A stretch of DNA of 64,000 nucleotides from Bixzunavirus tonenili (lineage: Duplodnaviria; Heunggongvirae; Uroviricota; Caudoviricetes): IMG/VR virus record IMGVR_UViG_2706796412_000001, positions 1 through 64,000 of that record; one strand, given 5' to 3'. A program made the translations under genes and the position numbers. The notes under the pieces were generated by a model. The model saw only the letters and a list, made by a program, of their open reading frames with translations. It was not told the DNA's origin and ran no database searches. Shown in pieces: positions 3,644-61,190 of this stretch. The first letter of the stretch is position 1. Every line of letters begins with the position of its first letter.

Positions 3644-3680
3644 TAGACTGATCACGCACACACTCACCAAGGGAGACCAT

Positions 3681-12006: not shown

Positions 12007-12357
12007 ATGAGCACGCCCGCGCAGTACCGCAAGAAGCCCATCGTCGTCGAGGCGTTGCAGTGGACCGGCGACAACGCCGAGGACCTGGCCGAGTGGGCCA
12101 CGATGCCCTGCCACGGCGCCATCCCCGGCTCCGAGCTGATCTGCTTCGTGCCGATGGACGACGACGAGATCTTCGACACGATCGACTCGACGCGCTATGA
12201 CGAATTTCGCGCCGTGGGCGCCACGGCGGCACTGTGGGTCAACGCCAACCAGAGTTGGCTGCCGATCAAGGACGGGGAGTGGGTCATCAAGGACCGGCTG
12301 GGCTTCTATCCGATCGAGGACAGCATGTTCGCCGAGAACTACGAGCCGGTCCCGTGA
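12007..12357 (+). CDS. hypothetical protein (116 aa)
   Basis: ATG 12007 after GGAAGAAGGA. Confidence 0.45.
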   Translation: MSTPAQYRKKPIVVEALQWTGDNAEDLAEWATMPCHGAIPGSELICFVPMDDDEIFDTIDSTRYDEFRAVGATAALWVNANQSWLPIKDGEWVIKDRLGFYPIEDSMFAENYEPVP

Positions 12358-13748: not shown

Positions 13749-13784
13749 GTAAGACACAGACACACTCACCCAAGGAGCCCCGAA

Positions 13785-16440: not shown

Positions 16441-16479
16441 AATGAGTGTAAGCGACACACACTCACCCAGGAGCCCGAA

Positions 16480-16964: not shown

Positions 16965-16996
16965 GTAAGACACACTCACTCACTCAGGAGTCCACG

Positions 16997-27453: not shown

Positions 27454-27480
27454 GGGAGGACCGGAGACCCCGGTCCTCCC
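27454..27480 (+). terminator. perfect 11-bp hairpin GGGAGGACCGG-agacc-CCGGTCCTCCC
   Basis: inverted repeat 8 nt after stop of 26210-27445. Confidence 0.5.
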
Positions 27481-31191: not shown

Positions 31192-31258
31192 CCTGATAGA
31201 CCCTGTCAACCCTTCCGGTGCTGCCTCGAATAGATGACGGGGCGAGGGAGGAGTTGTT

Positions 31259-31594: not shown

Positions 31595-31617
31595 CCTCCT
31601 CTAACAGATAGAGGAGG
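31595..31617 (+). promoter_or_regulatory. SD-sequestering hairpin CCTCCTCT-aacagat-AGAGGAGG
   Basis: 8-bp stem whose 3' arm is the GAGGAGG RBS 6 nt before ATG 31624. Confidence 0.45.
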
Positions 31618-31623
31618 TCACCT

Positions 31624-32355
31624 ATGTTTCGTTCCGCGTCGGCCATTGAGGCCGAAGCCGCTCAGCGCAAGCTGGACCAGTTGCGCGAAGACTGGCAACG
31701 CACGGCGAGCACCTGGTTTGACGGTACCGCCGAGTCGGTGGACCGCCGAATCGCTCAGCTCGATCGGGTGATCGCATTCGCCTCGCGTACCGCCCAGCGT
31801 GACGGAGATCCGGCAAAGTTCTGCCTGTCGGCACTGCCCACACTCAAGGCCAATCGCGAAGAGCTGACTGAACTGCGTCGCCAGCTGGTCGGCGGCTCCT
31901 GGTACACCGGTCCTGAGGATCACGGATTCGCCCTGAATCCCAACGACTACTCCAGCATGCGCGAGTGGATGGATGCGTCCAACATGAGCAGCTACATCCA
32001 GGACGCTCACGACAAGCACCCTCAGGACAACTGGGACCGCCACAAGGGCGACTACGCTGTCGACGAGAGCTGGATGGACCCGCATGCGCCCGCCGCATCG
32101 GGCCGCGACCTCATTCTCAATCACGCTGCTCTCGACTTCATCGCCGAGCAAGACACCACCGATCCCGGAGAACTCAAGATCCGGGCCCAGCGCCTCATCG
32201 CGGCGCGTACTTCCACATGGTCACGTGAAGCATCGGCCCGGGCAGTCCAGGCCTTTGTGAGGGCCGTGGAGGACAACAGTCCCCGACCGGTCCGGACAGC
32301 ATCGGCTCCAGTGCGGCACCTGCCCGGCTTCGAGGATTACCTCATGTTCAGTTGA
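31624..32355 (+). CDS. hypothetical protein (243 aa)
   Basis: ORF after hairpin-embedded RBS. Confidence 0.5.
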   Translation: MFRSASAIEAEAAQRKLDQLREDWQRTASTWFDGTAESVDRRIAQLDRVIAFASRTAQRDGDPAKFCLSALPTLKANREELTELRRQLVGGSWYTGPEDHGFALNPNDYSSMREWMDASNMSSYIQDAHDKHPQDNWDRHKGDYAVDESWMDPHAPAASGRDLILNHAALDFIAEQDTTDPGELKIRAQRLIAARTSTWSREASARAVQAFVRAVEDNSPRPVRTASAPVRHLPGFEDYLMFS

Positions 32356-35874: not shown

Positions 35875-35957
35875 GGAGGGTGAGCATCAGGTGATGCAGC
35901 GAGATTGCTAATCCCGTACGGTAACCACCCCGTGAGGTTCGAATCCTCCTCCCTCCG
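35875..35957 (+). tRNA. tRNA-Ser(GCU)-like, class II (hand-folded)
   Basis: acceptor GGAGGGT/TCCCTCC, D-stem GCAT/ATGC, anticodon loop TTGCTAA with imperfect stem, long variable arm, T-arm GAGG-TTCGAAT-CCTC, G73. Confidence 0.4.
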
Positions 35958-36065
35958 CGTAGTACATCTATGGAGGATGAAGCAGCCGCGTAGTGCGGCG
36001 ACCGGATTCGAAACCCGGGTAGCGCGTCATGGCGCTTGGGGAGCGTGCCCTCCTTCCTCCGCTTG

Positions 36066-36493: not shown

Positions 36494-36563
36494 CAACCTG
36501 TAGAAAACCTACCGACCTGTTCTAACCAGTAGGAGCAACACCTTCTATCTGGCAGGAGCAGGG

Positions 36564-43340: not shown

Positions 43341-43410
43341 GACCCTTCCAACAACCGCGCGAGCGGCTCGAATAGGTGTCCAATGTCCATCTATTTGAGA
43401 GGGCGACACC

Positions 43411-45328: not shown

Positions 45329-45338
45329 TAGACCCAAG

Positions 45339-45375
45339 TTCCTCCTCGAATGGTTAGGAGCCTTCGAGGAGGAAC
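45339..45375 (+). promoter_or_regulatory. SD-sequestering hairpin GTTCCTCCTCGAA-N11-TTCGAGGAGGAAC
   Basis: 13-bp perfect inverted repeat whose 3' arm contains RBS GAGGAGGAA 1 nt before ATG 45377. Confidence 0.5.
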
Positions 45376-45376
45376 A

Positions 45377-48300
45377 ATGGCGACGGTTTACACCGACTAC
45401 GGTCCGGGCGAGGTCATCGCATCGGAGACCGTGCGGGGCCGCACTCAGTACCAGGTTCGGGTGGCCGGTTACGGCGAGATGTGGCTGGACGCGACCAAGG
45501 TGGGCGCCATCCATGAGGCGTGGGCGCCGATGGACCACGACAACTCGGTCAGCCTCCCCTACGACCCAAAGCCGCAGTACCCGGCCCTGCCGGGCGATAC
45601 CGAGAGCACCATTCAGCCGATCCACGAGATCGACGCCGATGAGCGACTCTCCCCGGCGGACTCGATCACCTTCGAAGACCGCTCCGACGATGAGTCCATC
45701 ATCGACGGCCACAGCGACAACTTCGCCAAGAGTGCTGCCGTCCCCCTGCCGTACGGCGCCGGAGGCCTGGAGGGTGACCCGCACGAGCTGCATCGGCAGT
45801 GGATGGAAGAGACCGGCGAGCACCCCTCGCTGTCCCCGTACGCCGATGAGGTCGGTGCTCACGAGGATGACTTTCTCCCCGAAGAAGACTGGCATCCCAG
45901 CGACCAGTACGGCGACCTGAACAAGCCGTATCCGGCAGACACCTGGCGTTCCGATGTCGACCAGCGTTACCTCGGTTCGGCCAACCCTGATCTGCCTGGC
46001 CACATGACCAATGCGCACGAGGCCGCAGCCTTCCTCATCCCGCTCATGGGCGCCGGTGCGGCTGCCGGTGAGGCCGGACTCGGTGGCGCGGTGGCCGGAG
46101 GCCTGGCTCGTGGTGTCGGGATGGGCGCGGCCTCGGAGATGCTCGGCGGCGGCGGAGACCCGTCTCAGGGCGGCGGCGGAGTCGTCGACCAGGCCATTGA
46201 CGCCGCACAGCCCGGACCGGGCTGGGGAGAGCTGCAGCGCGGCGCCAGCCTGGATCAGTGGCTGTCCGGCCAGGATCAGGGCTCCGGGCGAGCTGCCGGT
46301 CTCGGCGACCGCTACATCGATCTCACCGCTGCGATCGACCCCAACGACCCGGTGACCATGTTCCGTCAGGATCCGGTTGCGTTCATCAATCGCACCGGCC
46401 ACGTTCATGACGAGCCGGTCAGTGAGCAGATGCAGCACTACGGGCATCTGATCGAGGCCAACCCGCAGATCCGCGAGGCCGCCTGGCGTGACGTCCGGGC
46501 CAAGGCGCTGCGACTGCGGCGCGAGGGCCGGGTGCACGTCAAAGATGTGGCGCCCGATCGCATCTACGCCAGCGTTGATGGCGACCACGGCACCTACGAC
46601 GTCATGATCGCCAAGGGCAGCGCCTTCGGTGGATTCGGCGGTGGCCACGCGATCAGCAACTGGCGCTGCGCGTGCGAGTGGGGCAAGTGGGCCTTCCAGC
46701 GTCGGATGACTTACGTCGGTCGGCTGTGCAGCCACGGCTACGCGGCCTACCTGACCATGCAGTCCGAGCACATGAAGGGCAAGCCGCGTCAGCGCCGGAT
46801 GCCTCAGGTCCGCAAGCGTGCCGACGCGCTGCAGAACACCCCGCAGCGTCTGGTGCCCGAGCTGGCCGTCAACGACTCCGACGACGCGCACACCTTCCTC
46901 GACGTCACCGAGGACGAGCGCAAGGACACCGGTCCCGACGACGTCATCACCGAGAAGGACATCGTCCACTTCTCCCGGCTGATGGCCAAGTGCGATGCCG
47001 AGCGTCTGCCTTACCCCCGGACCCTGGTGGCCTTCCTGGAGCGCTACGCCGACGACCAGACCCCCGAGGACTGGAAGATCGAGGACACCGGCAAGGCCGC
47101 TCCGGCTCTGGAAGAGCTGCGCGACTGGGCCGACACCTCGCAGGAGGACTACCTCGGCAACATGGAGGAGCGTGTCGAGGACATCCGCGACGCGGTCGAT
47201 ACCGCGCGCGAGTATGGCGTGGACGCCTCGCAGCTGACCGCCGGGGTGAACTTCCGCACCGCTGATCTCGACGACTACGTCCGCACCAACTCGGACGGAT
47301 CCAAGACGCAACGATCCAGGGGCACCACGACCACCACGACGCCCAGCGACGCGGCGGCAGACACCGAGGCCGACAATCAGGACGATCCGTCCTACGTGCC
47401 GGGCAGCGCGAGCAACGGCGCCGATCCGCGCTTCCGCAACCCCAACCAGCCTGCCGGGCTGCAGGGACCGGGCTTCAACGGCGACTACCCGGGCACCCAG
47501 ATCCAGGGTCCGGGTGTGCCGAGTGCCAATCAGCCGGGCCCGGGGGGCCAAGCGCCGGACTCGGCGGTCAACGGCGGCGCCGGTGCGGGCGGCAACTTCT
47601 ACAAGGACTGGTACGGCGGTCCCGGCGGCACCCAGAACACTCCGGGTAGCGGTTCCGCCTCGGGTGGCGGTTCGGGCAGCAGTGGCAATTCCTCCAGCGG
47701 CACCGGTGGTGGTGGAGGCGGCTGGGAGCGCAACACCGACACCAGCCCGATCTCTCAGGGCGAGTACCAGATCCAGTCTGGCGACACCCTGGCCGACATC
47801 GCGCAGCGGTCCGGTTACGGCGGCGACTACAACTCGCTGGCCCAGCAGAACAGCATCGCTGACCCCAACAAGATCAACGCGGGTGACACGATCAATATCG
47901 GCACCCCGGGCACCGGTGGCGGCGCTCCGGCCTCCAATCCGGCCCAGACCGGGTCGAATCCGGCCACCCCGTCGACCGGCGCACCGTCGACCACCCAGGT
48001 CGACACCTCGGCAGCGACTCAGAGCGGCGGAAGCGGGACCGGCAGCAGCACGGTGGACACCAGTGCGGCAGCCTCGACCCCGACCGACAACGCGGCCTCG
48101 CAGACGACCACCGAGACCAACAAGACCAGCCGTCGTCGGCGTCAGGCCGCGCCGTCGGGCAGCACCACCACCCCGGCGCAGAGCACCACGCCGGACTCCG
48201 AGGGTCTCGTCGACTCGATGGACAACCCGGCGGCGCCGACCGGCGGCACTCCGGCCAGCTCGTCGACGGCCATCGATCTGCCCGACAGCAACACCACGAC

Positions 48301-49180
48301 GCCAGGTAGCACCATCGACACCAGCGGCATGCCTGACGCCACCGGTGCAGGCAGCCAGGCCACCACGCCGGGCGGATTCGACCTGAGCCAGTTCAACGAC
48401 ACCATCAGCGGGGTCGGCGACGCCATCAATACCGGTGTGGGCATTGCCAGCGACATCGCGAGCGGAGTCGGCGATGTGGTCAGCGGCATCGGCAGCATCT
48501 TCAGCTCGCGTCAGGACTACGAGGAGTGGCACCGCTACGCCTACCCGGAGCCTGGCGACCACAAGCCGTTCGCCGGGTCGGGACCGGCAGGGCCGCTGGA
48601 GATCGGCCCGTCGACCGAGTACGCCGACAAGGCTCGCCGGAAGATGGACGACGTCACCGACCTGGACTACGACCACACCAAGCCGGTCAACCCTCGGCAG
48701 TCCTCGGCAGGCGGCGGCATCCAGCGTGCCGGTCGTGGCCCGCGTCGATCGGTGGAGCCGGTGGTGGTTCGTGAACAGCGCCCCGGACGTCCCGTGGTCG
48801 CCGCCGAGCAGCCTCATGTGCCCGACAACTTCGATCCGCTGGCGCCGCGCACGGCGGCCAGCTTCGACGATCCGTACGCCGACGATCAGGCCGCGATACA
48901 CATCGCGGCCAGCACTGACGACGACATCGTCGCAGCCTTCCAGCGTAGCGCTGGTGCCGAGGCCATCATGTCCAGTTCGGGCGGTGGCACCGACTACGAC
49001 GACTTCTCCTCGTCGCCTGCGGTGATCGCGGCCATGCAGCGCACCGCCGGACGGCAGTACTCGCCTGCCGAGCAGGCCGAGCTGATCCGCGAGGGCGACC
49101 GGGGCGGTGCGGGCAATCTCGACGCCCTGGATCTGCGCGGCACGCACTACGAGGCAGAGCACAGCATCGGCCTGTGGTGA
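45377..49180 (+). CDS. giant protein (1267 aa) with SWIM-type zinc finger and LysM peptidoglycan-binding domain
   Basis: CACEWGKWAFQRRMTYVGRLCSHGYAAYL (CxC..CxH); LysM YQIQSGDTLADIAQRSGYGGDYNSLAQQNSIADPNKINAGDTINIG; Gly/Ser/Thr linkers; antisense ORF 44462-49162 rejected. Confidence 0.6.
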   Translation: MATVYTDYGPGEVIASETVRGRTQYQVRVAGYGEMWLDATKVGAIHEAWAPMDHDNSVSLPYDPKPQYPALPGDTESTIQPIHEIDADERLSPADSITFEDRSDDESIIDGHSDNFAKSAAVPLPYGAGGLEGDPHELHRQWMEETGEHPSLSPYADEVGAHEDDFLPEEDWHPSDQYGDLNKPYPADTWRSDVDQRYLGSANPDLPGHMTNAHEAAAFLIPLMGAGAAAGEAGLGGAVAGGLARGVGMGAASEMLGGGGDPSQGGGGVVDQAIDAAQPGPGWGELQRGASLDQWLSGQDQGSGRAAGLGDRYIDLTAAIDPNDPVTMFRQDPVAFINRTGHVHDEPVSEQMQHYGHLIEANPQIREAAWRDVRAKALRLRREGRVHVKDVAPDRIYASVDGDHGTYDVMIAKGSAFGGFGGGHAISNWRCACEWGKWAFQRRMTYVGRLCSHGYAAYLTMQSEHMKGKPRQRRMPQVRKRADALQNTPQRLVPELAVNDSDDAHTFLDVTEDERKDTGPDDVITEKDIVHFSRLMAKCDAERLPYPRTLVAFLERYADDQTPEDWKIEDTGKAAPALEELRDWADTSQEDYLGNMEERVEDIRDAVDTAREYGVDASQLTAGVNFRTADLDDYVRTNSDGSKTQRSRGTTTTTTPSDAAADTEADNQDDPSYVPGSASNGADPRFRNPNQPAGLQGPGFNGDYPGTQIQGPGVPSANQPGPGGQAPDSAVNGGAGAGGNFYKDWYGGPGGTQNTPGSGSASGGGSGSSGNSSSGTGGGGGGWERNTDTSPISQGEYQIQSGDTLADIAQRSGYGGDYNSLAQQNSIADPNKINAGDTINIGTPGTGGGAPASNPAQTGSNPATPSTGAPSTTQVDTSAATQSGGSGTGSSTVDTSAAASTPTDNAASQTTTETNKTSRRRRQAAPSGSTTTPAQSTTPDSEGLVDSMDNPAAPTGGTPASSSTAIDLPDSNTTTPGSTIDTSGMPDATGAGSQATTPGGFDLSQFNDTISGVGDAINTGVGIASDIASGVGDVVSGIGSIFSSRQDYEEWHRYAYPEPGDHKPFAGSGPAGPLEIGPSTEYADKARRKMDDVTDLDYDHTKPVNPRQSSAGGGIQRAGRGPRRSVEPVVVREQRPGRPVVAAEQPHVPDNFDPLAPRTAASFDDPYADDQAAIHIAASTDDDIVAAFQRSAGAEAIMSSSGGGTDYDDFSSSPAVIAAMQRTAGRQYSPAEQAELIREGDRGGAGNLDALDLRGTHYEAEHSIGLW

Positions 49181-49215
49181 CCACGACGACCACCTAGAAG
49201 AAGAGAGGAGGTGTC

Positions 49216-52200
49216 GTGGCTACCAAGCACGTGCTGCATGCCGAACGACGGGACATCACCACCCGTCCTACGGACAGGGCCATCCGGCGCAAGCTGAAGC
49301 ATGCCGAGACTATCGGCGACTTCAAAATGCGTCCGGGTTACCTCTACACCGTGGTTCGGGCCATCTCGGCGCGAGTTAACCAGAACTACGACGGTTGGCC
49401 GTCCGAAGAGCTGAAGAAGGCCGCGCACACCTTCATCGGAAAGCCGGTCTTTGTCAACCACGAGAACTACGACCCGAAGAAGGCTAGGGGAGTTGTTGTC
49501 GCCGCTCGTTACGTCGAGAACGGCAACGACAAGTTCATCGAGGTCATTCAGGAAATCGACGCCAAGCGTTTCCCAAAGCTGGCCCGCGAGATCCGCACCG
49601 GCGGACTTGACTCTGTGTCGATGGGCGCCGAGGCCGGATTCACGATCTGCTCTTACTGCGGCAACAAGGCGACCGACGTCCCCGACTTCTGCGATCACGT
49701 CAAGTACCACAAGGGCGACCGTTTGCCACGGTGGAACGCTAAGACCGGCAAGGTCGAGGACGTTCTGGTCTACGAGTCCTGCCACAAGATCAGCTTCTTC
49801 GAGTTGAGCTATGTGTTCGACCCGGCGGACGAGACGGCGGTGGCCTCCAAGGTCATCATGGCCAACAACAAGACCGCTGCCGACTGCCCGCCCGGCCAGG
49901 ACTGCACGGTCGGCGGCAAGCCCGAGGACCAGATCACTCCGGACTCGGCCAACAACCCGGTCAACGGCGGCAGCAACGACAGCAGCAGCACCGGCGGCGG
50001 TGCTGGAGCGAGCGCGGCCACCACGGTTTCTGGCGGCGAGCTGGGCGAGCCTGGCGAGTCGGTGTCCGCCGGAGGAGGAGCCGGGGCCGACGGCATCATG
50101 GACGTCTCGCGCCCGCTCTACGACCAGCTCAAGACGATCGACCCGAACGCCGACATCGGCGGCTACCGCCCTGGCGGCGACGGCTACGACGAGCACAACA
50201 ACGGCGCGCTCGACTACATGACCACCGACCCGGCAGTGGCCGAACAGGTCAAGCAGAAGGCGTTCGAGAACGGCGCCCCGTACGTCATCTGGCAGCAGCA
50301 GCTGCACTATCCCGACGGCTCCACCAAAGCGATGGAGGACCGAGGCAGTCCGACGCAGAACCACATGGACCACGTGCACACGGGCCCGCTCACCGGACCG
50401 AAGGCTGCCCGGGTCGAGCACACGGTTCTGGTCACCGCCGGGTTCGTCGATCCGGCTGCCGACTGCACCGTATGCCGTCAGGCCCGGGTGGCCACCAAGT
50501 GCCACTACTGCGCCGGAGACGCCGAGGAGGGCTTCTCCTCGTGCGCCGCGCATCGGCCCATGGAAGAGAAGAAGTTCAGGGCCGCACAGCGAGAGGAGGC
50601 CGCGATGACGTTCGAGGCCCGCGTGATTCGTGAGTTCCTCGGTGGCCCGCCGCCACCGGCCCGCCCGATGACCGGCATCGAGCACCAGCCCGGCCTCAAC
50701 CCCGAGGACTATGTCGTGCCGTACAAGGGGCGCGGCTACAAGCCCGGCATGCCGGTCGACGTCTACCGCAACCTGCATTCGGAGAAGACCGGCACCGGCC
50801 TGTGGTCGGTCCGGCACAAGGGCCAGGTGGTCGGCCACGCCGATTTCATCCACATGCCCGACGGCAAGTTCTTCGTCGGCGAGGGCGGCAACCAGAAGGT
50901 CCAGGAGACCGGCCAGAAGAACGTGCACGCCGGAGCGCGCGGCGTGCTGGGCCCGGTGCCGCACGATCACGATCCGTCCCAGTACGTCGGCATCACCTAC
51001 AACCCCAAGGCCGGAGACACCAGCTTCTACCAGCGCGAGACCAAGGAGCCGGTCTGGGAGGCCGACCATGTGCACCTGGGTCCCGACGGCAAGGCCTACA
51101 CCCTCGGTCCGCGCAGCGGCATGGCCAGCGCCGACCAGAAGGTCTTCGAGGCCATGGTCCTGCAGGCCTACGGCGAGACCGAGGCGCCCACCCGTGTGGA
51201 CACCCTGCGTGAAGAGGGCTCGGCGCCCGAGGACGACAACAACGACTTCTACCACTACGTCGAGCCGCCCAAGGAGCTGCAGACCCCAGATCTGTCTGAG
51301 GCCGCACAGATCGACCGCGAGCAGGCCGAAAACATGGGCGGCAATGGTGCTGTCGACACCGACGGTGATCCCGGCCCGCACAGCGTGATGAACCAGCAGC
51401 CTGCCGCGCCGCAGCAGCAGTACATGACGCTGCAGATCCCGATCCCTCCGCAGGGTGCGGGCGTCCCGAGCGTGCCGATGCAGGCCTTCCAGCCTCAGCC
51501 CGGTCCCGCCCCGGCCCCGGCACAGCAGATCGCTGCCTCGACGCTCGACTACTTCGACCGCTACTTCGGGCGCCGTGTGGCCAACTGGCTCGACGCCGTC
51601 GAGGCCGGGCGCCCGTTCACCGCCGAAGAGGCTTCGGACTACAGGCGGCAAGCAATGAAGCTATCGACCCTGCAAAACGCGGCCTCAGCTTCAACAACAA
51701 GTAGGAACCCCAGGAAAGGAACCGCCAACATGGCACGCAGCACTCTCGCCTCGCGCAGCAAGGTGGTGACGGCTGGTCGTCGGCAGCACTTCGCCGAAGG
51801 TCCGTTGGTGGACTCCGGCGACCAGAGCCGCAACGACCAGGGAGAGCAGGAAGAGGCCTTCATCTCGACCACGCCTCCCGAGGAGCCGGTGGTGGCTCCG
51901 ACCGATGACACCCCGAACATCTCCAACACCGAGCAGAACCTCGTTGCTCGGGTGCAGCGGGGCCGCGCCCAGCTCATGGCCGACGCGCAGAAGCTGGCTC
52001 AGCTTCAGGCCGCCCGCAAGCGCCGGACGGCCAACGAGGCCGGAGGCCCGGTGGCCACCGAGGTCAACCCGACCGTCAACTCCGGCCCGGGCGCCGAGGA
52101 GCTGACCGGGGACGACTTCGAGTCGGCCAACCCCAACGACGGCGTTGTCGAGACTCAGCCCAAGGATGCGAGCCTCCACGCGTTCCGCACCTTCGACTCG

Positions 52201-52926
52201 TGGCTGAAGCGCAAGACGGGCAAGTCGAGCCGGTACCACACTCACGCGACGATTCGTCGCGCGGCGGACGACTTCAGCCGTCAGTCCGGAGTTTCCGTCC
52301 AGGCCCTGTTCCCGGCCCTGGGAATCGTGCTGCGAGAAGCACGAAAGAACGAAAAGGCAGCAGCCAACACCAAGGGAGCCAACATGCGCAAGCGCGCCGA
52401 CGAGAAGCTGGAAGTCGCAGCTCCGGATGGACGTGTTGACGTCGAGGCCCCGACCCGAGGAACGACTGACGCAGAGGCTCAGGCCTCTCAGTTCGACCTC
52501 AACGACTTCGGCAACAACGCCGGAGACGATATCGCCGATCCGGATCTGAGCACTGATCAGAACTGGGCCCCCGGCGAGGCCACCAAGACCAGCAGGGTCA
52601 AGACGGCAGGTGGCGTTCTCGCCTTCCGTCTGGCGGAAGCCATGATCGCTGCTGGTATCGAGCCGAACACCGCCGAGCGGAAGTATGCGCTGGCGGCAGA
52701 GTTCGAAAACATGAGCCGTGGTGCGGTCCAGGACCGTATCGCGCTGTGCGAGCGCTTCGTGCCGGTTCTGGCCGCAGCTCGCCGTCAGGTCGCCAGCGGT
52801 AGTACTCGCGGGGCCGCACTGAAGTCCCCCATCCCTTCGGGTCTGGCACAGGGCGCGCAGCGCACCGCCGGTCGCGCAGTGGTGGCGGCAAACGACCCCC
52901 GTAATGACTCTTCGCTCTTCATCTGA
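49216..52926 (+). CDS. giant protein (1236 aa) with HK97-type (S78) prohead protease-like N-terminal region
   Basis: GTG after AGAGGAGG; N-terminal KPVFVNHENYDPKKARGVVVAARYVENGN resembles S78 protease His-region; immediately upstream of capsid genes; rest Pro/Ala/Gln-rich. Confidence 0.55.
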   Translation: MATKHVLHAERRDITTRPTDRAIRRKLKHAETIGDFKMRPGYLYTVVRAISARVNQNYDGWPSEELKKAAHTFIGKPVFVNHENYDPKKARGVVVAARYVENGNDKFIEVIQEIDAKRFPKLAREIRTGGLDSVSMGAEAGFTICSYCGNKATDVPDFCDHVKYHKGDRLPRWNAKTGKVEDVLVYESCHKISFFELSYVFDPADETAVASKVIMANNKTAADCPPGQDCTVGGKPEDQITPDSANNPVNGGSNDSSSTGGGAGASAATTVSGGELGEPGESVSAGGGAGADGIMDVSRPLYDQLKTIDPNADIGGYRPGGDGYDEHNNGALDYMTTDPAVAEQVKQKAFENGAPYVIWQQQLHYPDGSTKAMEDRGSPTQNHMDHVHTGPLTGPKAARVEHTVLVTAGFVDPAADCTVCRQARVATKCHYCAGDAEEGFSSCAAHRPMEEKKFRAAQREEAAMTFEARVIREFLGGPPPPARPMTGIEHQPGLNPEDYVVPYKGRGYKPGMPVDVYRNLHSEKTGTGLWSVRHKGQVVGHADFIHMPDGKFFVGEGGNQKVQETGQKNVHAGARGVLGPVPHDHDPSQYVGITYNPKAGDTSFYQRETKEPVWEADHVHLGPDGKAYTLGPRSGMASADQKVFEAMVLQAYGETEAPTRVDTLREEGSAPEDDNNDFYHYVEPPKELQTPDLSEAAQIDREQAENMGGNGAVDTDGDPGPHSVMNQQPAAPQQQYMTLQIPIPPQGAGVPSVPMQAFQPQPGPAPAPAQQIAASTLDYFDRYFGRRVANWLDAVEAGRPFTAEEASDYRRQAMKLSTLQNAASASTTSRNPRKGTANMARSTLASRSKVVTAGRRQHFAEGPLVDSGDQSRNDQGEQEEAFISTTPPEEPVVAPTDDTPNISNTEQNLVARVQRGRAQLMADAQKLAQLQAARKRRTANEAGGPVATEVNPTVNSGPGAEELTGDDFESANPNDGVVETQPKDASLHAFRTFDSWLKRKTGKSSRYHTHATIRRAADDFSRQSGVSVQALFPALGIVLREARKNEKAAANTKGANMRKRADEKLEVAAPDGRVDVEAPTRGTTDAEAQASQFDLNDFGNNAGDDIADPDLSTDQNWAPGEATKTSRVKTAGGVLAFRLAEAMIAAGIEPNTAERKYALAAEFENMSRGAVQDRIALCERFVPVLAAARRQVASGSTRGAALKSPIPSGLAQGAQRTAGRAVVAANDPRNDSSLFI

Positions 52927-52957
52927 CGCGAAGTAAGGACTCAGGAGGACCACGGAA

Positions 52958-53500
52958 ATGACTTTCCGTCCACCGGCGTCCAATCCGGCTCAGAAGCGGA
53001 CGCTGGTTCCGCGTTACGCCAACACCCAGGCCACCCCCTGGGCGGGCTTCCTCGATCCGGATCTGGACATCGATTTCGACATCCTGCCCGGCACCGTGAT
53101 GCAGCGGCTGTACGGCGACGTGTTCGCTCCGTACACCGGCGCAGCGGGCACCGTGCCCTTCGGCCTGTCGGCCCTGTTCGTCGCCCCACGTCTGGGCGTC
53201 AGCGAGGTCTCCAGCTCGGGCACCGGCCTGTTCACCGTGTGGGTGGGCGACAGCCAGGCCGTCTTCGACGTGCTGGCACCGGCATTCGACGTGGATGCTG
53301 ACTGGCCCGCCGCTGGCGCGACCGGACCGCATCGCGTCATGTTGACGGCGAACGCGAAGGGTCGGCTGACTCCCGAGGGTGTGACCCCGGAGAACGTCAT
53401 CGCCGAGCTGATCGACATCCCGTCGACCGACAAGATCACGATCCGCCTGAACCGCCTCGACCTCGCGGCGACCGGTGGCGGACTGGCGGGAGGCAGCTAA
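52958..53500 (+). CDS. head-associated protein (180 aa; scaffold or decoration candidate)
   Basis: AGGAGGA RBS; sits between protease-like gene and major capsid gene. Confidence 0.45.
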   Translation: MTFRPPASNPAQKRTLVPRYANTQATPWAGFLDPDLDIDFDILPGTVMQRLYGDVFAPYTGAAGTVPFGLSALFVAPRLGVSEVSSSGTGLFTVWVGDSQAVFDVLAPAFDVDADWPAAGATGPHRVMLTANAKGRLTPEGVTPENVIAELIDIPSTDKITIRLNRLDLAATGGGLAGGS

Positions 53501-53503
53501 GCC

Positions 53504-54505
53504 ATGACTCTTCCAGTTGCAGTCGGAAGCGGCCTGGGCCGCTTCGCCAAGGCGTCCGACGACTACGTGGCCGACATCGTCGAGGCCAAGCAGCGTATGG
53601 GCAATCGCAAGCTCAGCGCTCGCGAGAAGCAGGCCAAGCTCGCTCACATCCTGAGCGACAAGGTCGGCGGCATCCAGCGTCTGGGCCAGTCGATGATCGG
53701 CCCGATCCAGCTCCAGCTGCGTTACCAGGGCATCCTGCGTAACGTCCTGCTGGAGGACACGCTGACCCCCGGCGTGCCGATCCAGTACGACGTCCTGGAC
53801 GACCTCGGCCAGGCCTACATGCTGCACGGCAACGAGGGCGAGATCCGCATCACCCCCTTCGAGGGCAAGCGTATCGAGGTCCAGCTGTTCCGCATCGCGA
53901 GCTTCCCGCAGATCAAGAAGGAAGACCTGTACTACCTCCGCAGCAACATCGTGGAGTACACGCAGGACATGACCAAGCAGGCCATCATGCGCCAGGAGGA
54001 CTCGCGCCTCGTGACGCTGCTGGAGGCTGCAGCGGTCAGCTACCGCGTCGTGGACAGCTCGGCTCAGCCGGGCGTCGGCGCACTGCCCAACGAGATCACC
54101 ATCGCCGGTTCACACCTGATGCCGGATGATCTCTACACGGCGGTGACCTACACCGACCAGCGTCAGCTGGACAGCTCGCGCCTGCTGGCGAACCCGCAGG
54201 AGTACCGCGACCTGTACCGGTGGGACATCAACACGACCGGTTGGGCCTTCAAGGACTCGGTGGTCGCTGGTGAGCGCATCGTCCAGTTCGGCGAGTTCCA
54301 GATCGGCAAGTCGATCATCATCCCGCGTGGCACCGTCTACCTGACCCCGGAGCCCGAGTTCCTCGGCGTCTTCCCGGTCATGTACTCCCTCGATGTCGAG
54401 GAGGACAACAAGGTGGAGCGGTTCAACAAGGGCTGGGTGATGGACGAGCTGGTCGGCATGGCCGTGCTCAACCCGAGGGGCATCGTCATCCTCAGGAAAG
54501 CCTGA
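53504..54505 (+). CDS. major capsid protein (HK97-fold candidate, 333 aa)
   Basis: size, position after protease/scaffold genes, strong terminator downstream. Confidence 0.6.
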   Translation: MTLPVAVGSGLGRFAKASDDYVADIVEAKQRMGNRKLSAREKQAKLAHILSDKVGGIQRLGQSMIGPIQLQLRYQGILRNVLLEDTLTPGVPIQYDVLDDLGQAYMLHGNEGEIRITPFEGKRIEVQLFRIASFPQIKKEDLYYLRSNIVEYTQDMTKQAIMRQEDSRLVTLLEAAAVSYRVVDSSAQPGVGALPNEITIAGSHLMPDDLYTAVTYTDQRQLDSSRLLANPQEYRDLYRWDINTTGWAFKDSVVAGERIVQFGEFQIGKSIIIPRGTVYLTPEPEFLGVFPVMYSLDVEEDNKVERFNKGWVMDELVGMAVLNPRGIVILRKA

Positions 54506-54537
54506 CAAGGTCGTCCTTAGGACAATCCTGCAGTAGG

Positions 54538-54578
54538 ACCCCGCTACCTGCAAAGGTGGCGGGGTTCCTGCTTTCTCT
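54538..54578 (+). terminator. rho-independent terminator ACCCCGC-[ACCT gcaa AGGT]-GCGGGGT plus T-rich tail
   Basis: 7-bp stem with nested GNRA hairpin then TTCCTGCTTTCTCT, 33 nt after capsid gene stop. Confidence 0.6.
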
Positions 54579-54766
54579 GATTGACGTCAAGGGCTGGTTG
54601 CGTCCAGAGTCCGAGGTCAAGTGCCGCGAGGCTGGTGTCCGATTGATCACCAAAGCCGACCTGCTGCGTCTGGAATCTGGCGACAGTCTGGACGCCCACC
54701 GCATGCTGCTGTGGAACCCTGTGACGGCCTCGTGATCTGACTCAAATAGGTGAAGGGAGGTCTGTC

Positions 54767-55144
54767 ATGCGCCGCATCGTCACCGCACGTGAGCAGGCTG
54801 AGATGCTGCTGCCGTGGCGCACGGCGATGCCCTGGTATGGCGTTCCTGATGAGCACAGGGGTGTGCCGATGTACCACAGCTCCCCGTCATACAACCGCGA
54901 CTCCATCCAGAGTCAGGGGCTGACAACTGGGTTTTCTGACGACGAGGGGATTGAGCCAGGCATCTATATGACGCCGATCAAGCACGACTACCTCGATGCC
55001 GATCATGACGTGTGGCAAATTGATACTTCAGGTCTGGAACACCTAGAGCCTGATGGAGGATATGACCACCCCACAACCGGCAAACATCTGCCTGCGTACT
55101 GGACTCGAAATAACATTCCACCTCATGCCTTGAAGCGACTGTAG
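54767..55144 (+). CDS. protein with N-terminal RIVTAREQAEMLLPW motif (125 aa)
   Basis: GGGAGG RBS; N-terminal motif shared with 57084 and 58675 genes. Confidence 0.5.
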   Translation: MRRIVTAREQAEMLLPWRTAMPWYGVPDEHRGVPMYHSSPSYNRDSIQSQGLTTGFSDDEGIEPGIYMTPIKHDYLDADHDVWQIDTSGLEHLEPDGGYDHPTTGKHLPAYWTRNNIPPHALKRL

Positions 55145-55193
55145 CGGCATTGTCATCCTCCGGAAGGCATAACCCCAGGTCAAGCAACGAGAA

Positions 55194-55222
55194 GGCCCCC
55201 TCTTCGGAGGGGGTTTTCTTGT
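55194..55222 (+). terminator. rho-independent terminator CCCCCTC-TTCG-GAGGGGG plus TTTTCTT
   Basis: 7-bp GC stem with UUCG tetraloop and U-tract after 54767-55144. Confidence 0.65.
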
Positions 55223-55316: not shown

Positions 55317-55949
55317 ATGAGCATCTACCCCGCATCCGACGCCCAGATCCGCTTCATCAACACCCTGCTTGCCGAGCGTGACGTCCCGCAGGCCTCCCGC
55401 GATTACGTCGAGCAGCTGCTGACCACCGGCATCAGCAGCAAGCGTGCCAGCGACGCCATCACCCACCTGAAGGGCTTCGTCAAGATCCAGGTCCAGCAGG
55501 AGCTGGCCGTCGCGGCCATCGCCCGCCCCCGGCCCACCGAGCCCGGCTTCTACCTGGTCGACGGCGAGGTCTTCAAGGTCGTCGAGACCCGTGACGGCGA
55601 GCGGCTCTACGCCAAGAAGACCACCGCCCACGGCCTGGAGTACGTCCCCGGCGCCATGACCCGGATCTTCGCCGATCAGAAGCTCTCGCCCGAGCAGATC
55701 GCCGAGCAGGGCTTGACTCAGGGCTTCTGCATCGTGTGCTCCTCGGAGTTCGAGGACCCGACCTCCAAGCACATCGGCATCGGCCCGACCTGCGGTCCCA
55801 AGACCCTGGGCAAGGACGTCTACAAGGAGCTGCGGCTGAGCGTGGCCGATCGCCCCGACGTTGTCGCCTTCGAGGCCGCGAAGAAGGCCCGGGCCAAGGA
55901 GGCCCGCGAGGCCAAGAAGCGCCAGGGCGAGCAGCTCGCGCTGGTGTGA
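55317..55949 (+). CDS. hypothetical protein (210 aa) in self-contained promoter-gene-terminator cassette
   Basis: flanked by consensus promoter and two copies of the same UUCG-tetraloop terminator. Confidence 0.55.
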   Translation: MSIYPASDAQIRFINTLLAERDVPQASRDYVEQLLTTGISSKRASDAITHLKGFVKIQVQQELAVAAIARPRPTEPGFYLVDGEVFKVVETRDGERLYAKKTTAHGLEYVPGAMTRIFADQKLSPEQIAEQGLTQGFCIVCSSEFEDPTSKHIGIGPTCGPKTLGKDVYKELRLSVADRPDVVAFEAAKKARAKEAREAKKRQGEQLALV

Positions 55950-55963: not shown

Positions 55964-55995
55964 GGCCCCCTCTTCGGAGGGGGTCTCTTCGTTTG
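55964..55995 (+). terminator. rho-independent terminator CCCCCTC-TTCG-GAGGGGG plus TCTCTTCGTTTG
   Basis: second copy of the hairpin found at 55194. Confidence 0.65.
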
Positions 55996-56573: not shown

Positions 56574-56609
56574 GGGAATGAATCCCCATATCTCTGTGTT
56601 ATACTAGGT
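56574..56609 (+). promoter_or_regulatory. promoter-like motif GGGGAATGAATCCCCAT..GTTATACTAGGT
   Basis: consensus copy; leader CATTCACCCACACACAGAGGAG upstream of ATG 56642. Confidence 0.5.
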
Positions 56610-56641
56610 GCACATTCACCCACACACAGAGGAGTTCCGGC

Positions 56642-56860
56642 ATGATCATCGACGACCTCAACGGAGAACTGGTCGACATCGAGGACGGCGGCGTCTCGAA
56701 CGAGAAGCTCGTCCAGATAGAGCGTGAGTACTTCTCGCTTCTGATCGATCCGGGCACCGAGCGCTACTGGGGGCGGGACTACCTGCGCCACTTGGGCCAG
56801 GACTACGACTCGATCGTCGAGGAGATCGGCTACCGTCGACGCGATCGGGAATGGGTGTGA
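56642..56860 (+). CDS. hypothetical protein (72 aa)
   Basis: ORF after promoter and leader. Confidence 0.4.
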   Translation: MIIDDLNGELVDIEDGGVSNEKLVQIEREYFSLLIDPGTERYWGRDYLRHLGQDYDSIVEEIGYRRRDREWV

Positions 56861-56875
56861 GGAGGTGACCATGAG

Positions 56876-57040
56876 ATGGAGCGCTACCTGTTCGCCGGAA
56901 GCGAGTTGACCCGCGACGAACTGGAGAAGGCTTTGGCTCCAGAGCTGGACGAACTCAACGCCGCCCAGGGCACCAAGATCGGCTTCGACGAATACCTGGC
57001 CGCAGCTCTGAACACCGGCACCATCACCGAGATCCTGTAA
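56876..57040 (+). CDS. hypothetical protein (54 aa)
   Basis: GAGGAGG RBS. Confidence 0.3.
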   Translation: MERYLFAGSELTRDELEKALAPELDELNAAQGTKIGFDEYLAAALNTGTITEIL

Positions 57041-57052
57041 GGCGGGGCGGGA

Positions 57053-57074
57053 CCTCCTCTAATAGGTGAGGAGG
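57053..57074 (+). promoter_or_regulatory. SD-sequestering hairpin CCTCCTC-taataggt-GAGGAGG
   Basis: 7-bp stem whose 3' arm is the RBS of gene 57084; same architecture as hairpin at 31595. Confidence 0.45.
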
Positions 57075-57083
57075 CCTGTCCTG

Positions 57084-58682
57084 ATGCGAATCACCACTGC
57101 TCGCGAGCAGTTCGAAATGCTCTTGCCCTGGCGAGAGGCCGACGTCGCTATTCGCCCAGACGCCGTTCCGCCAGGAGTTCCTGGTGCTGGCAATCAGCCT
57201 CAGATCCCGGCCCGAGAGAAGAACATCGGCGAAAACACGCCATGGTCGCAGGTCGACTGGCGTACCGCCGACGATTACGGGGCGCATCGGTCCACCAGTC
57301 GACCACCGATGTCTTCCGACATCCCGCACCCGACCGAGCTGCTCGATCCCCGCAAGGCCGGTCATCGTGCACGCCTGGAGCGTGCGATGGCCAGCGAAGA
57401 CCCGGTGAACGATCCATGGAACGTCCTCGGCGGCACACCCTGGACATTCGAAGACCTGGTCCAGAACCACATGAGCCACCACCAGAACATGAATCCCGAG
57501 CAGGAGTTTCAGGGGCGTGTCTGGTACCCAGCGGCCCATGACTCCACCAAGGACGTGGCCCAGCGGACCATCGGTGACCACGAGCGCACGGTGGCCGTCG
57601 ATTCGGCGCTGTCGCCGGTCAAGGACTGGGACCTCAACAACGAGCAGATGATCCACTACCTGACCAACTACGAGGGTCAGGAGGGATACAAGTCTCCGAC
57701 GAAGAACTGGAAGGGATTCAGCCGCGACGCGCCCGAGCGCGACCCTGAGAACCGGTTCCGGGTCAAGGCGCCCGACGATCAGAACGAGAAGGCTCATCGG
57801 CTGATGGACGCCCCGGCAGGATCGCTGGGGCGAGAGGACTACCTCAACATCCTGTCCGGCCCCAAGACCAGCTCCTTCTTCAACAACATCCTCGACGAGA
57901 CCCCGCTGCGCGAACCGCGCTCAGGCGTGCCGGACGACGAGGGGTTCTACGAGCACCAGATCAATCCGAACACCGGCAAGCCGGACTGGCGCTACGGCGA
58001 TCAGGACGTCACCGTGGACACCCATCACGCTCGGGTTCAGACGATCCCGCACGGCGCCGATCTCAGCCAGGTGGGGTACGTGGTGCCCGACCACTTCGGC
58101 GAGAAGCTCACAGTCAACAAGAAGGCCTACCACCCCGGTTATGACCTGCACGCTCGTGCGTCGGCGGAAGCAACCCGTCGGCTCAACGCCATGCAGGAGG
58201 ACGACCTGCGGACCTTGAAGCCCAAGCAGGCTCAGGCCGGTCCGTGGGTCAAGTTCAAGAAGGACGTCGTCGACGCCGGTGTGTCGCCGAACATGCCCGA
58301 GCCCGGCCAGATGCCCAAGTCTTTCAATCCCGACAAGCCGACCCAGCTGAGGGGCCCGTATCCGAACACTCCGGACCAGCCTCGTTACCAGCGTGACGTT
58401 GGCGACTTCTGGGTACATCCAGACCGTCCGGACCCGGACTTGCGCCGGGCTCCGAACTGGAACAACCGCACGCCCAGCTGGCGTAGCGAGAAGAATCGTC
58501 GGCAGTCGTCGGTGCGGGTGGGCTTCGTCGAGGAATGGATCGCTCAGCACTTCCCGCATCGGGCTTCTGGCGTTCCCGAAGACGGCAGCGTCCAGCAGGT
58601 GGTTCAGGCCAGCTTCGACGACGGATCTCGGCTGACTGCTGAGACTCTCGCCTTCGCCGATGAGGTGCTCAAGAATGTGTAA
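57084..58682 (+). CDS. large protein (532 aa) with N-terminal RITTAREQFEMLLPW motif
   Basis: shared N-terminal motif; Pro/Asp-rich; downstream of capsid genes. Confidence 0.55.
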   Translation: MRITTAREQFEMLLPWREADVAIRPDAVPPGVPGAGNQPQIPAREKNIGENTPWSQVDWRTADDYGAHRSTSRPPMSSDIPHPTELLDPRKAGHRARLERAMASEDPVNDPWNVLGGTPWTFEDLVQNHMSHHQNMNPEQEFQGRVWYPAAHDSTKDVAQRTIGDHERTVAVDSALSPVKDWDLNNEQMIHYLTNYEGQEGYKSPTKNWKGFSRDAPERDPENRFRVKAPDDQNEKAHRLMDAPAGSLGREDYLNILSGPKTSSFFNNILDETPLREPRSGVPDDEGFYEHQINPNTGKPDWRYGDQDVTVDTHHARVQTIPHGADLSQVGYVVPDHFGEKLTVNKKAYHPGYDLHARASAEATRRLNAMQEDDLRTLKPKQAQAGPWVKFKKDVVDAGVSPNMPEPGQMPKSFNPDKPTQLRGPYPNTPDQPRYQRDVGDFWVHPDRPDPDLRRAPNWNNRTPSWRSEKNRRQSSVRVGFVEEWIAQHFPHRASGVPEDGSVQQVVQASFDDGSRLTAETLAFADEVLKNV

Positions 58683-59976: not shown

Positions 59977-60188
59977 TGGCGCTGGATATGGAGAAGCTGC
60001 GCGCGTTCGCCAGCGAGGTGGGTTACTGGCCTGCCACCGACGATGACGATGAGCTGGAGGCCCGGCGCCAGGCGCACGCTGCCGACACCGGCTCGCTGGA
60101 GCACACTCACGCCAAGTACGGCCACCTGCGTGAACACAAGCGTCAGGTCGAGGCCGAGGCTGCCGCGCGGCGCGATCTCAAGGACTGA
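59976..60188 (+). CDS. hypothetical protein (70 aa)
   Basis: TGATG overlap. Confidence 0.35.
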   Translation: MALDMEKLRAFASEVGYWPATDDDDELEARRQAHAADTGSLEHTHAKYGHLREHKRQVEAEAAARRDLKD

Positions 60189-60190
60189 CC

Positions 60191-60562
60191 ATGACGATGC
60201 CCACCGAGGAAAGCGGCAAGCCGGGTCTGTTCGACCGGTTTGCCGACCTCATCAACCAGTTCACCTCGCGCGCGTGGTTCTTCCTCGCCTGCGTTTTGCT
60301 CGTGCTGATATGGGCACCCAGCTTTCTGGTGGTGGGCAACATCGACACCTGGCAGCTGCTGATCAACACCCCGACCACGGTGATCACATTCCTGCTGGTG
60401 GCCCTGCAGGCCAACACCTCGAAGCGGTCCGACGCCTCGACGCAGACCAAGCTCAATGCCGTCGCCGACGGCATGGCCGACCTGATGGAGCACTTCGGGG
60501 TCACCAAGCATGCCCACGAACTACGAGAGGCCGTGGGACTGGAAGAAAAGGAGTCCACCTGA
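60191..60562 (+). CDS. DUF1003-like integral membrane protein (123 aa)
   Basis: two TM helices; LLINTPTTVITFLLVALQANTSKRSDASTQTKL resembles DUF1003 small membrane proteins. Confidence 0.45.
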   Translation: MTMPTEESGKPGLFDRFADLINQFTSRAWFFLACVLLVLIWAPSFLVVGNIDTWQLLINTPTTVITFLLVALQANTSKRSDASTQTKLNAVADGMADLMEHFGVTKHAHELREAVGLEEKEST

Positions 60563-61021: not shown

Positions 61022-61139
61022 CACCCGCCGACACCGGCGTTACACTTGTTTCTGAGGCGCTCCTTGCGAGTGCAAAATTCTTCTCAGTGGGTGAGAAGTG
61101 GTGGAGAGCAAAGGGATTCGTTTCCCCGTCAGCTCCCCG

Positions 61140-61190
61140 GAGGACCTGTGCTTGCTCGGGCGTGCCAGCACAGGTCCTCTTCCATTTTGT
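61140..61190 (+). terminator. rho-independent terminator: 13-bp stem GAGGACCTGTGCT..AGCACAGGTCCTC plus TTCCATTTTGTGT
   Basis: long perfect inverted repeat followed by T-rich tract. Confidence 0.65.

Follow-up and report, generated by a model that had tools for sequence, protein, structure and literature searches.

How can a phage gene be translated when its ribosome-binding site is locked inside a stable RNA helix? The question arises in Mycobacterium phage Tonenili (NC_031080.1; 160,985 bp), a cluster C myovirus of the genus Bixzunavirus with 64% GC whose host is M. smegmatis. The window analyzed here comprises bases 1-64000 of this genome, and window coordinates equal genome coordinates. 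All annotated genes of the window lie on the + strand, as do the window features given below. An earlier note had drawn attention to four genes whose Shine-Dalgarno (SD) sequence is built into the 3' arm of a strong hairpin, and all four hairpins were found at the positions it gave. The GenBank record lists no regulatory features at these four sites. Rfam covariance models, run at the gathering score over the 64-kb window, returned only three tRNAs and no thermometer, riboswitch or leader family. For statistical power, the remainder of the Tonenili genome was added to the window. Throughout, "late" is assigned from gene position only, and the early and late timing classes are deduced from motifs and gene function.

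Site 1 (31595-31617) pairs CCTCCTCTA (31595-31603) with TAGAGGAGG (31609-31617) across the loop ACAGA. This stem of 9 bp with a 5-nt loop holds the SD, AGGAGG (31612-31617), in its 3' arm, ahead of ATG 31624 of gp092. At site 2 (45338-45375), GTTCCTCCTCGAA (45338-45350) and TTCGAGGAGGAAC (45363-45375) form a stem of 13 bp that is perfect, as had been claimed; the loop measures 12 nt rather than the 11 nt reported. The SD again lies within the 3' arm. ATG 45377 begins a 1267-aa protein that had been called a SWIM/LysM protein; the LysM assignment holds, and SWIM has no Pfam match at E<=1e-3. This gene opens a block with protease-like and major capsid genes that extends to a terminator at 54536. 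Sites 3 and 4 are real, yet larger than first described. Site 3 (57043-57083) is a 16-bp helix with one bulge, in which an outer pairing of CGGGGCGGG with CCTGTCCTG encloses an inner pairing of CCTCCTC (57053-57059) with GAGGAGG (57068-57074) around the loop TAATAGGT; its 3' arm reaches ATG 57084 (gp240, DUF7178). Site 4 (61769-61818) is a two-tier hairpin. Its outer stem of 13 bp, CGAAGACCCCTTC with GGAGGGGTCTTCG (61769-61781 and 61806-61818), contains the SD, and its inner hairpin, CCACTC-GAATCAAT-GAGTGG, has 6 bp; the pairing GAAGACCCCT/AGGGGTCTTC belongs to this same two-tier helix. The start is GTG 61821 (gp232), and the head decoration gene follows gp232 after 17 nt. Counted as whole helices, sites 2-4 reach 16-19 bp with bulges or internal loops, while site 1 stays at 9 bp. 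For sites 1-4 the minimum free energies (MFEs) are -14.3, -28.7, -30.7 and -39.0 kcal/mol; measured against dinucleotide shuffles, the z-scores range from -2.8 to -6.2. The free-energy check called for in the earlier note thus came out in its favor, in the range -14 to -39 kcal/mol.

Stems by themselves are common in this DNA. The + strand of the window contains 102 perfect stems of at least 7 bp, compared with 65 +/- 7.5 in dinucleotide shuffles, and a bare 7-bp stem is unremarkable in the window. Only three of the 102, those of sites 1-3, carry an SD in a 3' arm directly before an annotated start. SD opening cost was defined as the free energy required to force the SD core unpaired in the RNA from -55 to +12. 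It was computed for 80 Tonenili genes having an upstream gap of at least 15 nt and a recognizable SD, each with 60 dinucleotide shuffles confined to the part upstream of the SD. The costs were 13.4 kcal/mol at site 1 (6.9 shuffled), 19.9 at site 2 (6.2 shuffled), 14.5 at site 3 (5.0 shuffled) and 13.2 at site 4 (5.4 shuffled). These are ranks 1-4 of the 80 genes, site 2 being highest, and each value was reached by at most 1 of 60 upstream shuffles. The tendency extends to the structural and lysis-region genes as a class (5.5 kcal/mol versus 4.0 shuffled), and early genes stay at the level of their shuffles (3.4 versus 3.3). Genes whose real cost was reached by at most 1 of 60 shuffles number 7 of 40 in the late class and 2 of 40 in the early class. 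We consider it highly probable that the four hairpins are selected structures that occlude the SD.

Relatives were then compared: Bxz1, Myrna (Myrnavirus), the Gordonia phages Pupper and Skog, which belong to separate genera, Rhodococcus phage E3, one IMG/VR contig and metagenomic contigs, with orthologs assigned by tblastn. The IMG/VR search gave 2 loci and the metagenome scan 7, of which 3 were new and informative (L012, L016 and L017). Cluster C1 genomes, nearly identical among themselves, were of little value for covariation: in the head region they show 98-100% identity, or make up one lineage at 89% against Tonenili. Information on covariation came from Tonenili, the other C1 genomes taken together, Myrna, Pupper, Skog and a small number of metagenomic contigs. 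When the site 4 orthologs were aligned with MAFFT, the result was inconsistent with the structure and was set aside; base pairs were instead compared one position at a time, counted from the GGAGG core, in MFE folds of the individual sequences. Pairs in such folds are Watson-Crick by construction, and the informative test is the shuffle control.

In orthologs of all four genes the AGGAGG core stands at a constant distance from the start codon. In most lineages the SD is again in a helix, with a different partner strand and different flanking pairs. Opening costs of the orthologs at sites 1-4 are 8-22 kcal/mol, mostly above their own shuffles, in relatives down to 31-47% protein identity. The sequence complementary to the SD at site 1 (the anti-SD) is CCTCCTCT in Tonenili and Bxz1, GCCTCCTC in Pupper, where it occurs twice in tandem, CTCTTCGCCCC in Skog and AGACCTC in Myrna. 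At site 2, Bxz1 keeps an identical stem around a completely different loop, Myrna has CTGTTCgCCcCGGAAG and Pupper CCCCTCTGA, and in Skog the sequence is CTCTTCTGA, with C to U changes that retain G-U pairs. Site 3 becomes CCTCCTCT...AGAGGAGG around an inner hairpin in Pupper and CTCTCTGGCG/CGCCAGAGGAG in Skog; contigs have GCCTTCT/AGGAGGC (37-41% protein identity), CCCCTTCTCCTCCC/GGGGAGGGAAAGGGG (47%) and GGGCCTCCTC-aataggtagaac-GAGGAGGCCC (31-35%). At site 4, GAAGACCCC/GGGGTCTTC of Tonenili corresponds to GAAGGCCCC/GGGGCCTTC of Bxz1, a clean double change from A-U to G-C, and in Myrna both tiers are rebuilt with several both-sided changes. This comparison of homologous leaders, including the compensatory A-U to G-C change, agrees with what the earlier note had anticipated. 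Since most orthologs in other genera keep the occlusion with different stem sequences, these SDs appear to be under selection for it across four or more genera of phages and two of hosts. Two observations on Pupper belong here. At its site 1 ortholog (L008, 2735-2775) the tandem anti-SDs, GCCTCCTC GCCTCCTC, compete for one SD, which suggests alternative pairings. At 12190-12226, CCTCT can pair either with AGAGG of the loop region or with the true SD.

These results bear on one alternative, that the hairpins are terminators or insulators with an incidental SD overlap, or else chance inverted repeats. They are intergenic and GC-rich, and the shuffles show that many short stems arise by chance. 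The SD pairing, however, exceeds that of shuffled sequence and is conserved with altered stems across genera, and no T tract follows any of the four hairpins, none of which is called by a terminator scan. Czyz et al. are said to have shown in 2014 that mycobacterial RNA polymerase needs a U tract. Canonical terminators do occur in the same region. One at 54536-54567, past the major capsid gene, has a 14-bp stem and a T-rich tail, and similar hairpins with T tracts lie at 55198-55213, 55968-55983 and 61139-61180. The four SD hairpins are not intrinsic terminators, because they lack the T tract that these canonical examples elsewhere in the region possess. We regard the terminator or chance explanation as very improbable.

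The terminators themselves show some further features. Those at 55198-55213 and 55968-55983 are identical hairpins, CCCTCTTCGGAGGGGG, with T-rich tails, which flank the gene at 55317-55949 as a repeated terminator cassette. The one at 61139-61180, which a simple scan missed, lies in the 277-nt gap after 61021 and consists of a 14-bp stem, (G)GAGGACCTGTGCT...AGCACAGGTCCTC(C), followed by TTCCATTTTGT; it is the probable terminator of the unit 57084-61021. The terminator at 54536-54567 overlaps the GTG of an ORF (open reading frame) annotated as "zinc finger binding domain" (coding sequence 54556-54735), and both the start and the annotation of this ORF look doubtful. Its product, 59 aa long, contains a single Cys and gave no significant match in Pfam.

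What would such helices do to translation? Helices this stable should block 30S binding unless relieved. By what de Smit and van Duin reportedly found, opening costs of 13-20 kcal/mol should abolish initiation, not tune it. Some translational gating of the hairpin genes is a reasonable reading, and that part of the earlier proposal, translational control of a subset of genes, stands. A switch is not the only conceivable form of it. The helices might instead attenuate constitutively, setting a low, fixed rate of translation for low-copy virion proteins and protecting mRNA ends. Genes for abundant proteins do have open SDs: the cost is 0.8 at the tail sheath gene (70803), whose product is abundant, and 0.0 at 83628, and the occluded SDs belong to genes whose products are possibly low-copy. 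Yet a cost of 13-20 kcal/mol and helices of -29 to -39 kcal/mol should abolish initiation, and a weak SD would be a simpler device, whereas these genes keep a perfect AGGAGG at conserved spacing. Moreover, site 2 opens the capsid block and site 4 precedes the head decoration gene. Fixed attenuation is improbable on this evidence. The baseplate gene at 83628, outside the window, has the opposite design to the occluded sites: a TCTGT/ACAGA hairpin exposes the SD, GAGGAGG, in its loop. Some means of relief must exist at the occluded sites, because the genes are conserved and head blocks with capsid and decoration genes, while the helices should abolish 30S binding.

Relief might come from translational coupling, in which ribosomes that finish the upstream ORF melt the helix and pass to the occluded SD. 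All four hairpins begin within 2-9 nt of the upstream stop, and the Myrna stem at site 1 even includes part of the stop codon. A terminating ribosome covers some 6-9 nt beyond its stop. For sites 1-4 the distance from stop to stem is 9, 9, 2 and 6 nt, and the cores that pair with the SD start at 10-12 nt or more. No site has its 5' arm in the upstream ORF, and most of the arms are out of the ribosome's reach: at sites 1 and 2 the stem begins only at 9 nt, and the part within reach at sites 3 and 4 is limited to the outer 1-5 pairs, with the SD-pairing core beyond. Across orthologs the distance from stop to hairpin varies from 0 to ~30 nt, and two members of the wider family follow tRNA genes, not ORFs. 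Coupling is therefore quite unlikely to be the means of relief.

Occlusion is not confined to the four genes first listed, a count that proved too low: at least ten late genes belong to the set, including lysin A. Neither this larger family nor a sequence motif shared by its members had been recognized. Further hairpins with the SD in the 3' arm precede 31259, 36564, 49216, 56031, 56642 and 64792 and, outside the window, 141395 and 147835 (lysin A). Most members of simple-hairpin type have the stem CCTCCTC/GAGGAGG, as dictated by complementarity to the SD; the lysin A hairpin, CCTCCTC-GAATAACT-GAGGAGG, has 7-8 bp. Before GTG 31259 the SD-pairing structure (31208-31255) is weaker and has the motif copy CCTCGAATAGATGA at its apex; its Bxz1 ortholog is much stronger, a 79-nt upstream segment folding at -43.5 kcal/mol. 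The two-tier hairpin at 36516-36562, before ATG 36564, pairs CCTGTTCT with the SD region AGGAGCAGG and has CTAACCAGTAGGAG in its loop region. This gene, with an opening cost of 8.8, is the first past a tRNA cluster and opens the portal block. Within that neighborhood the annotated tRNA-Ser(gct) at 35875-35958 was missed by Rfam at the gathering threshold, and three neighboring tRNA-Leu genes were reported. At 49181-49219 the hairpin covers GTG 49216, so that SD and start codon are both paired; it is kept in Bxz1 and Myrna, with the outermost pair changed from C-G to U-A. The hairpin before ATG 56642 (56591-56632), CTCTGTGT...ACACAGAG(GAG), contains a host-type -10 box, TATACT (56600), in its loop and has an opening cost of 7.8 against 3.3, reached by 0 of 60 shuffles. 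RNAs initiated at this internal promoter would be without the 5' arm. The same arrangement, a host-type TATACT box within a hairpin that pairs the SD, recurs at 13785.

The motif shared by the late members has the consensus CTCGAATAGGTGA, and expectation maximization (EM) on late intergenic sequence returns CCTcgAATAG as its top motif. Its place is always the + strand, 23-45 nt ahead of a start codon, with the 5' arm on one side and the SD on the other. By EM and k-mer analysis the best copy in the window is CCTCTAATAGGTGA (57056-57069), and other copies start at 31224, 31598, 43366, 45344, 54740, 56004 and 61786. A loose position weight matrix for the motif was rejected, since it also matches coding CCTCGAAGAG (Leu-Glu-Glu), and the statistics were confined to the AATAG/TCGAAT core. 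The + strand of the 161-kb genome contains 10 copies of AATAG, 8 of them in late and 0 in early intergenic sequence. All four copies of AATAGGT are late intergenic, and TCGAAT has 8 late copies versus 0 early. The AATAG and TCGAAT counts are above those of 500/500 dinucleotide shuffles, and the GC content of intergenic sequence is 0.57 in late and 0.56 in early regions. CTGTAG, which stands upstream of several hairpins, was rejected as a second motif: many copies are Leu-stop codons of the upstream gene or their remnants, and there is no strand bias (29 versus 30).

The motif lies in the loop at 31624, 57084, 61821, 99591, 141395 and 147835. At 42981, 43411 and 45377 it belongs to the 5' arm, and at 56031 and 54767 to the 3' arm or to weak structure. 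Since it occupies loops as well as arms, it is not simply a loop. Distant metagenomic relatives, at 31-47% protein identity, retain AATAGGT-like loops. A related arrangement is seen at 43367-43398, where the late motif CTCGAATAGGTG pairs with an inverted copy, CATCTATTTGAG, before the gene at 43411; in Bxz1 a G to A change turns a G-U pair into A-U.

A fixed sequence on variable stems resembles an operator, and a trans-acting phage factor might recognize it, either an RNA-binding activator or repressor or a reader of hairpin promoters like that of N4. Known precedents are Mu Com on mom mRNA, the operators of T4 gp43 and RegA, and the phage N4 promoters that are read as extruded DNA hairpins. 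At least six Tonenili sites have 7-9-nt loops of the C-GAAUAGGU-G type on unrelated stems, such as CCTCCTC/GAGGAGG, CCACTC/GAGTGG and GGGTCTC/GAGACCC, and AATAGGT-type loops survive at 31-47% protein identity. The presence of the motif in 5' or 3' arms, on the other hand, makes a fixed presentation in a loop unnecessary, and some orthologs have the hairpin without the motif. The "zinc finger" protein gp246 was considered as a Com-like activator and rejected (a single Cys and no significant domain), and no other candidate for a Com-like operator-binding protein was found. An operator of this kind is unlikely. It is likewise with no great confidence that we suggest that CTCGAATAGGTGA, placed on arbitrary stems, is the recognition site of a phage-encoded late factor. 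This could be an RNA-binding activator of translation, or else a sigma-like or N4-like specificity factor for polymerase that recognizes a promoter in hairpin or melted form.

The motif may act in transcription. Its core, nnGAAT, resembles a -10 element. In Myrna and Pupper, TAGAATAG stands 6-7 nt before ATGs that have no SD, which is the geometry of leaderless genes, and nnGAAT therefore plausibly acts as a -10. The boxes concerned, TAGAAT, are found 6-7 nt before SD-less ATGs in near-identical cassettes, TTCTAGCnTGCTAGAATAGAATCATG (Myrna, L007 28010-28038 and 32681-32709) and TAGAATAGCAAGCATG (Pupper, L008 27985-28009), which are probable leaderless genes within the structural region. In Tonenili, the base 7 nt past the last T of nnGAAT falls within 2 nt of the first base of AGGAGG or GGAGG at five sites. 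For RNAs that start 7 nt past the hexamer, the computed cost of opening the SD drops from 13-19 to 0-3 kcal/mol at sites 1-4.

Together these data suggest two transcripts with different fates. The strong consensus SDs (AGGAGG) of selected late genes would be held in a helix, with no translation as long as the 5' arm is on the transcript. The hairpins appear to sit where co-directional early-type or non-structural genes enter late blocks without a terminator, the upstream units being small genes with host-type -10 boxes, ThyX and RNA-ligase genes, and tRNA clusters. They would thereby insulate these genes at the level of translation, so that read-through transcripts do not yield virion and lysis proteins too early. 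Late expression would come from RNAs that lack the 5' arm because they start or are cut at the motif, most likely by initiation at CTCGAATAGGTGA between the 5' arm and the SD. We infer the block to translation in vivo, the early class of the upstream units and the start of late RNA inside the hairpin from sequence and computed folds, and we put forward the full two-transcript model, in which read-through is silenced and late RNAs start within the hairpin, as a tentative account.

The genomic context is consistent with it in several respects. The head-gene region is a mosaic in which small genes with host-type -10 boxes (GTTATACT/TATAGT) and a CA-rich early leader stand among structural genes; such small genes start at 29530, 55317, 56642, 61299 and 61640, with the promoter cassettes (-10 box and leader) of these ORFs at 29489, 55274, 56600, 61253 and 61595. 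The leader, ACACACTCAC, was found by EM on early regions at a fixed 22-31 nt before the start and is unrelated to the late motif. In most cases the -10-like box stands upstream of it. It has ~20 sites in the window and ~28 genome-wide, for example 3658-3667, 13760-13769, 16457-16466 and 16970-16979. Box and leader together look like an early promoter-plus-leader cassette. Early-type cassettes adjoin sites 3 and 4 on their upstream side (56642-57040 and 61640-61762). ThyX and RNA ligase genes precede site 2, a synteny kept in Bxz1, Myrna, Pupper and Skog. Between these upstream genes and the hairpins of sites 2-4 there is no terminator-like site, and the + strand from 26 to 45.5 kb has no convincing terminator. 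Clusters of tRNA genes precede the hairpins of 36564 and 99591, and glycosyltransferase genes precede that of 141395. Units that open with hairpin and motif run to terminators, from 45377 to 54536, from 54767 to 55198 and from 57084 to 61139, and the unit at 56031 follows the terminator at 55968.

Several observations weigh against the two-transcript model. At five sites the predicted start gives an mRNA that has the SD at its extreme 5' end, an unusual position. In most copies of the hexamer the -11 A of host SigA promoters is missing, and a phage factor would be needed. The hairpins of lysin A and 49216 follow late genes, not early ones. In Myrna and E3 the site 3 ortholog is without SD occlusion, and the motif is lost where the hairpin is kept in the site 2 loop of Bxz1 (GAAGAAGAGAGAAGCCCC), at site 1 of Skog (CCCCCAAGGGG) and at site 4 of Myrna (CCAGAA). 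A search of the literature on promoters, transcriptomes and sigma factors of cluster C/Bxz1 phages found nothing relevant.

Inspection of the sequences upstream of the hexamer revealed no common -35-like element. A candidate late transcription factor is gp148 (126607-127473; L004 13708-14574), encoded outside the window, which has a weak, sub-threshold match to Sigma70 region 4 (E=1e-3). It is syntenic with gp160 of Rhodococcus phage E3 (L009 10762-11184), whose annotation reads sigma-70 region 4 protein (E=2e-5).

The 5' arm could also be removed after transcription. The earlier note had favored unwinding or cleavage, for example by RNase III, and in this alternative a cut by RNase III or another endoribonuclease removes or destabilizes the 5' arm, frees the SD and stabilizes the upstream mRNA. 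RNase III sites have roughly two helical turns of double-stranded RNA, often with an internal loop; the T7 R-sites and the lambda N leader are phage examples. The helices of sites 2-4, at 16-19 bp with bulges or internal loops, are of similar size, the hairpins are intercistronic and without a T tract, and the conserved single-stranded loop motif could be a cleavage signal. The hairpins of site 1 and lysin A, however, have 7-9 bp and are too short for RNase III. A cut confined to the loop would leave a stable intermolecular duplex, and at 54767 and 63270 the motif stands without a long helix. Nothing in the sequence separates processing from internal initiation, and no sequence feature favors RNase III over other routes of relief. 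With site 1 at only 9 bp, RNase III is not specifically supported as the activator. Activation by processing, plausible at sites 2-4 and implausible for the members of 7-9 bp, is on the whole improbable.

One hairpin elsewhere in the window has the reverse polarity. At 27454-27480, 8 nt past the gp083 stop, a perfect 11-bp hairpin, GGGAGGACCGG-agacc-CCGGTCCTCCC, has an SD-like 5' arm and an anti-SD-like 3' arm, without a T tract.

More than 200 cluster C mycobacteriophages have been sequenced, and they serve in teaching and as mycobacterial tools, while no late promoter or post-transcriptional control has been described for them. No description of these hairpins or of the late motif in cluster C phages was found in the literature. 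The analysis yields about a dozen hairpins, one motif and 5' ends predicted to a few bases, which could define the late regulatory signal of the lineage and could account for the silencing of late and lysis genes that lie among early-type cassettes. If a late factor reads the motif, every late operon in the lineage of Bixzunavirus, Myrnavirus, Puppervirus and Skogvirus would be turned on together. If late RNAs start within the hairpin, the late start and the release of the SD would be coupled in one compact element, with mRNAs that begin exactly at the SD. The hairpins may also offer strong natural "off" translational insulators for mycobacterial synthetic biology. Should the relief mechanism prove ordinary, this would be a solid but unsurprising case of SD occlusion.

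Several known systems share parts of this design. As in coupling in MS2 and bacterial operons, the downstream SD is paired in an intercistronic helix, but in Tonenili the 5' arms lie outside the upstream ORF, mostly beyond the terminating ribosome, and the spacing is not conserved. Like the RNase III sites of T7 early and late mRNA and of the lambda N leader, whose cleavage can change downstream translation, the Tonenili hairpins are intercistronic imperfect helices; unlike them, two Tonenili hairpins are too short, and the SD is an integral arm in every case. In Mu com-mom, too, a late gene has its signals for starting translation locked in a hairpin and is expressed only upon relief, but Mu has one site and a dedicated zinc-finger protein, and no Com-like protein was found in Tonenili.

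Among mycobacteriophages, cluster K genomes carry start-associated sequences (SAS) and their extended form (ESAS), short orientation-specific motifs just upstream of a subset of starts, of unknown function (PMC3203893). Like the Tonenili elements, SAS motifs overlap the SD, often occur with inverted repeats that have 4-13-nt spacers and are conserved by gene family, whereas ESAS repeats are conserved in sequence and lie upstream of SAS (PMC3203893); the Tonenili stems vary and the SD is one arm. The SAS consensus GGGATAGGAGCCC (13 bp, 3-8 bp upstream of starts) is not enriched in Tonenili, with 19 matches at up to 3 mismatches versus 22.9 expected, and none falls at a hairpin gene except a 3-mismatch overlap in the site 2 loop.

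By analogy of function, the closest system appears to be the T4 e/soc class. In T4, the long early RNAs of genes e, soc, 49 and I-TevI form a structure that covers the SD, and translation proceeds from late RNAs initiated inside that structure (PMC3014915). In both phages a strong helix covers the SD of late genes downstream of same-strand genes that are, or in Tonenili would be, expressed earlier. Both sets include the endolysin gene (lysin A in Tonenili, lysozyme in T4), and in both a short late-specific motif overlaps the region encoding the 5' strand and loop, while relatives keep the structure with variation. Tonenili differs in lineage and host, being an actinobacteriophage with 64% GC, in its motif (CTCGAATAGGTGA, compared with TATAAATA in T4) and in number, with at least ten sites per genome versus a handful in T4; its internal start is a prediction. 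If that prediction is right, the hairpins would extend the strategy of T4 genes e and soc to a distant, high-GC group of phages.

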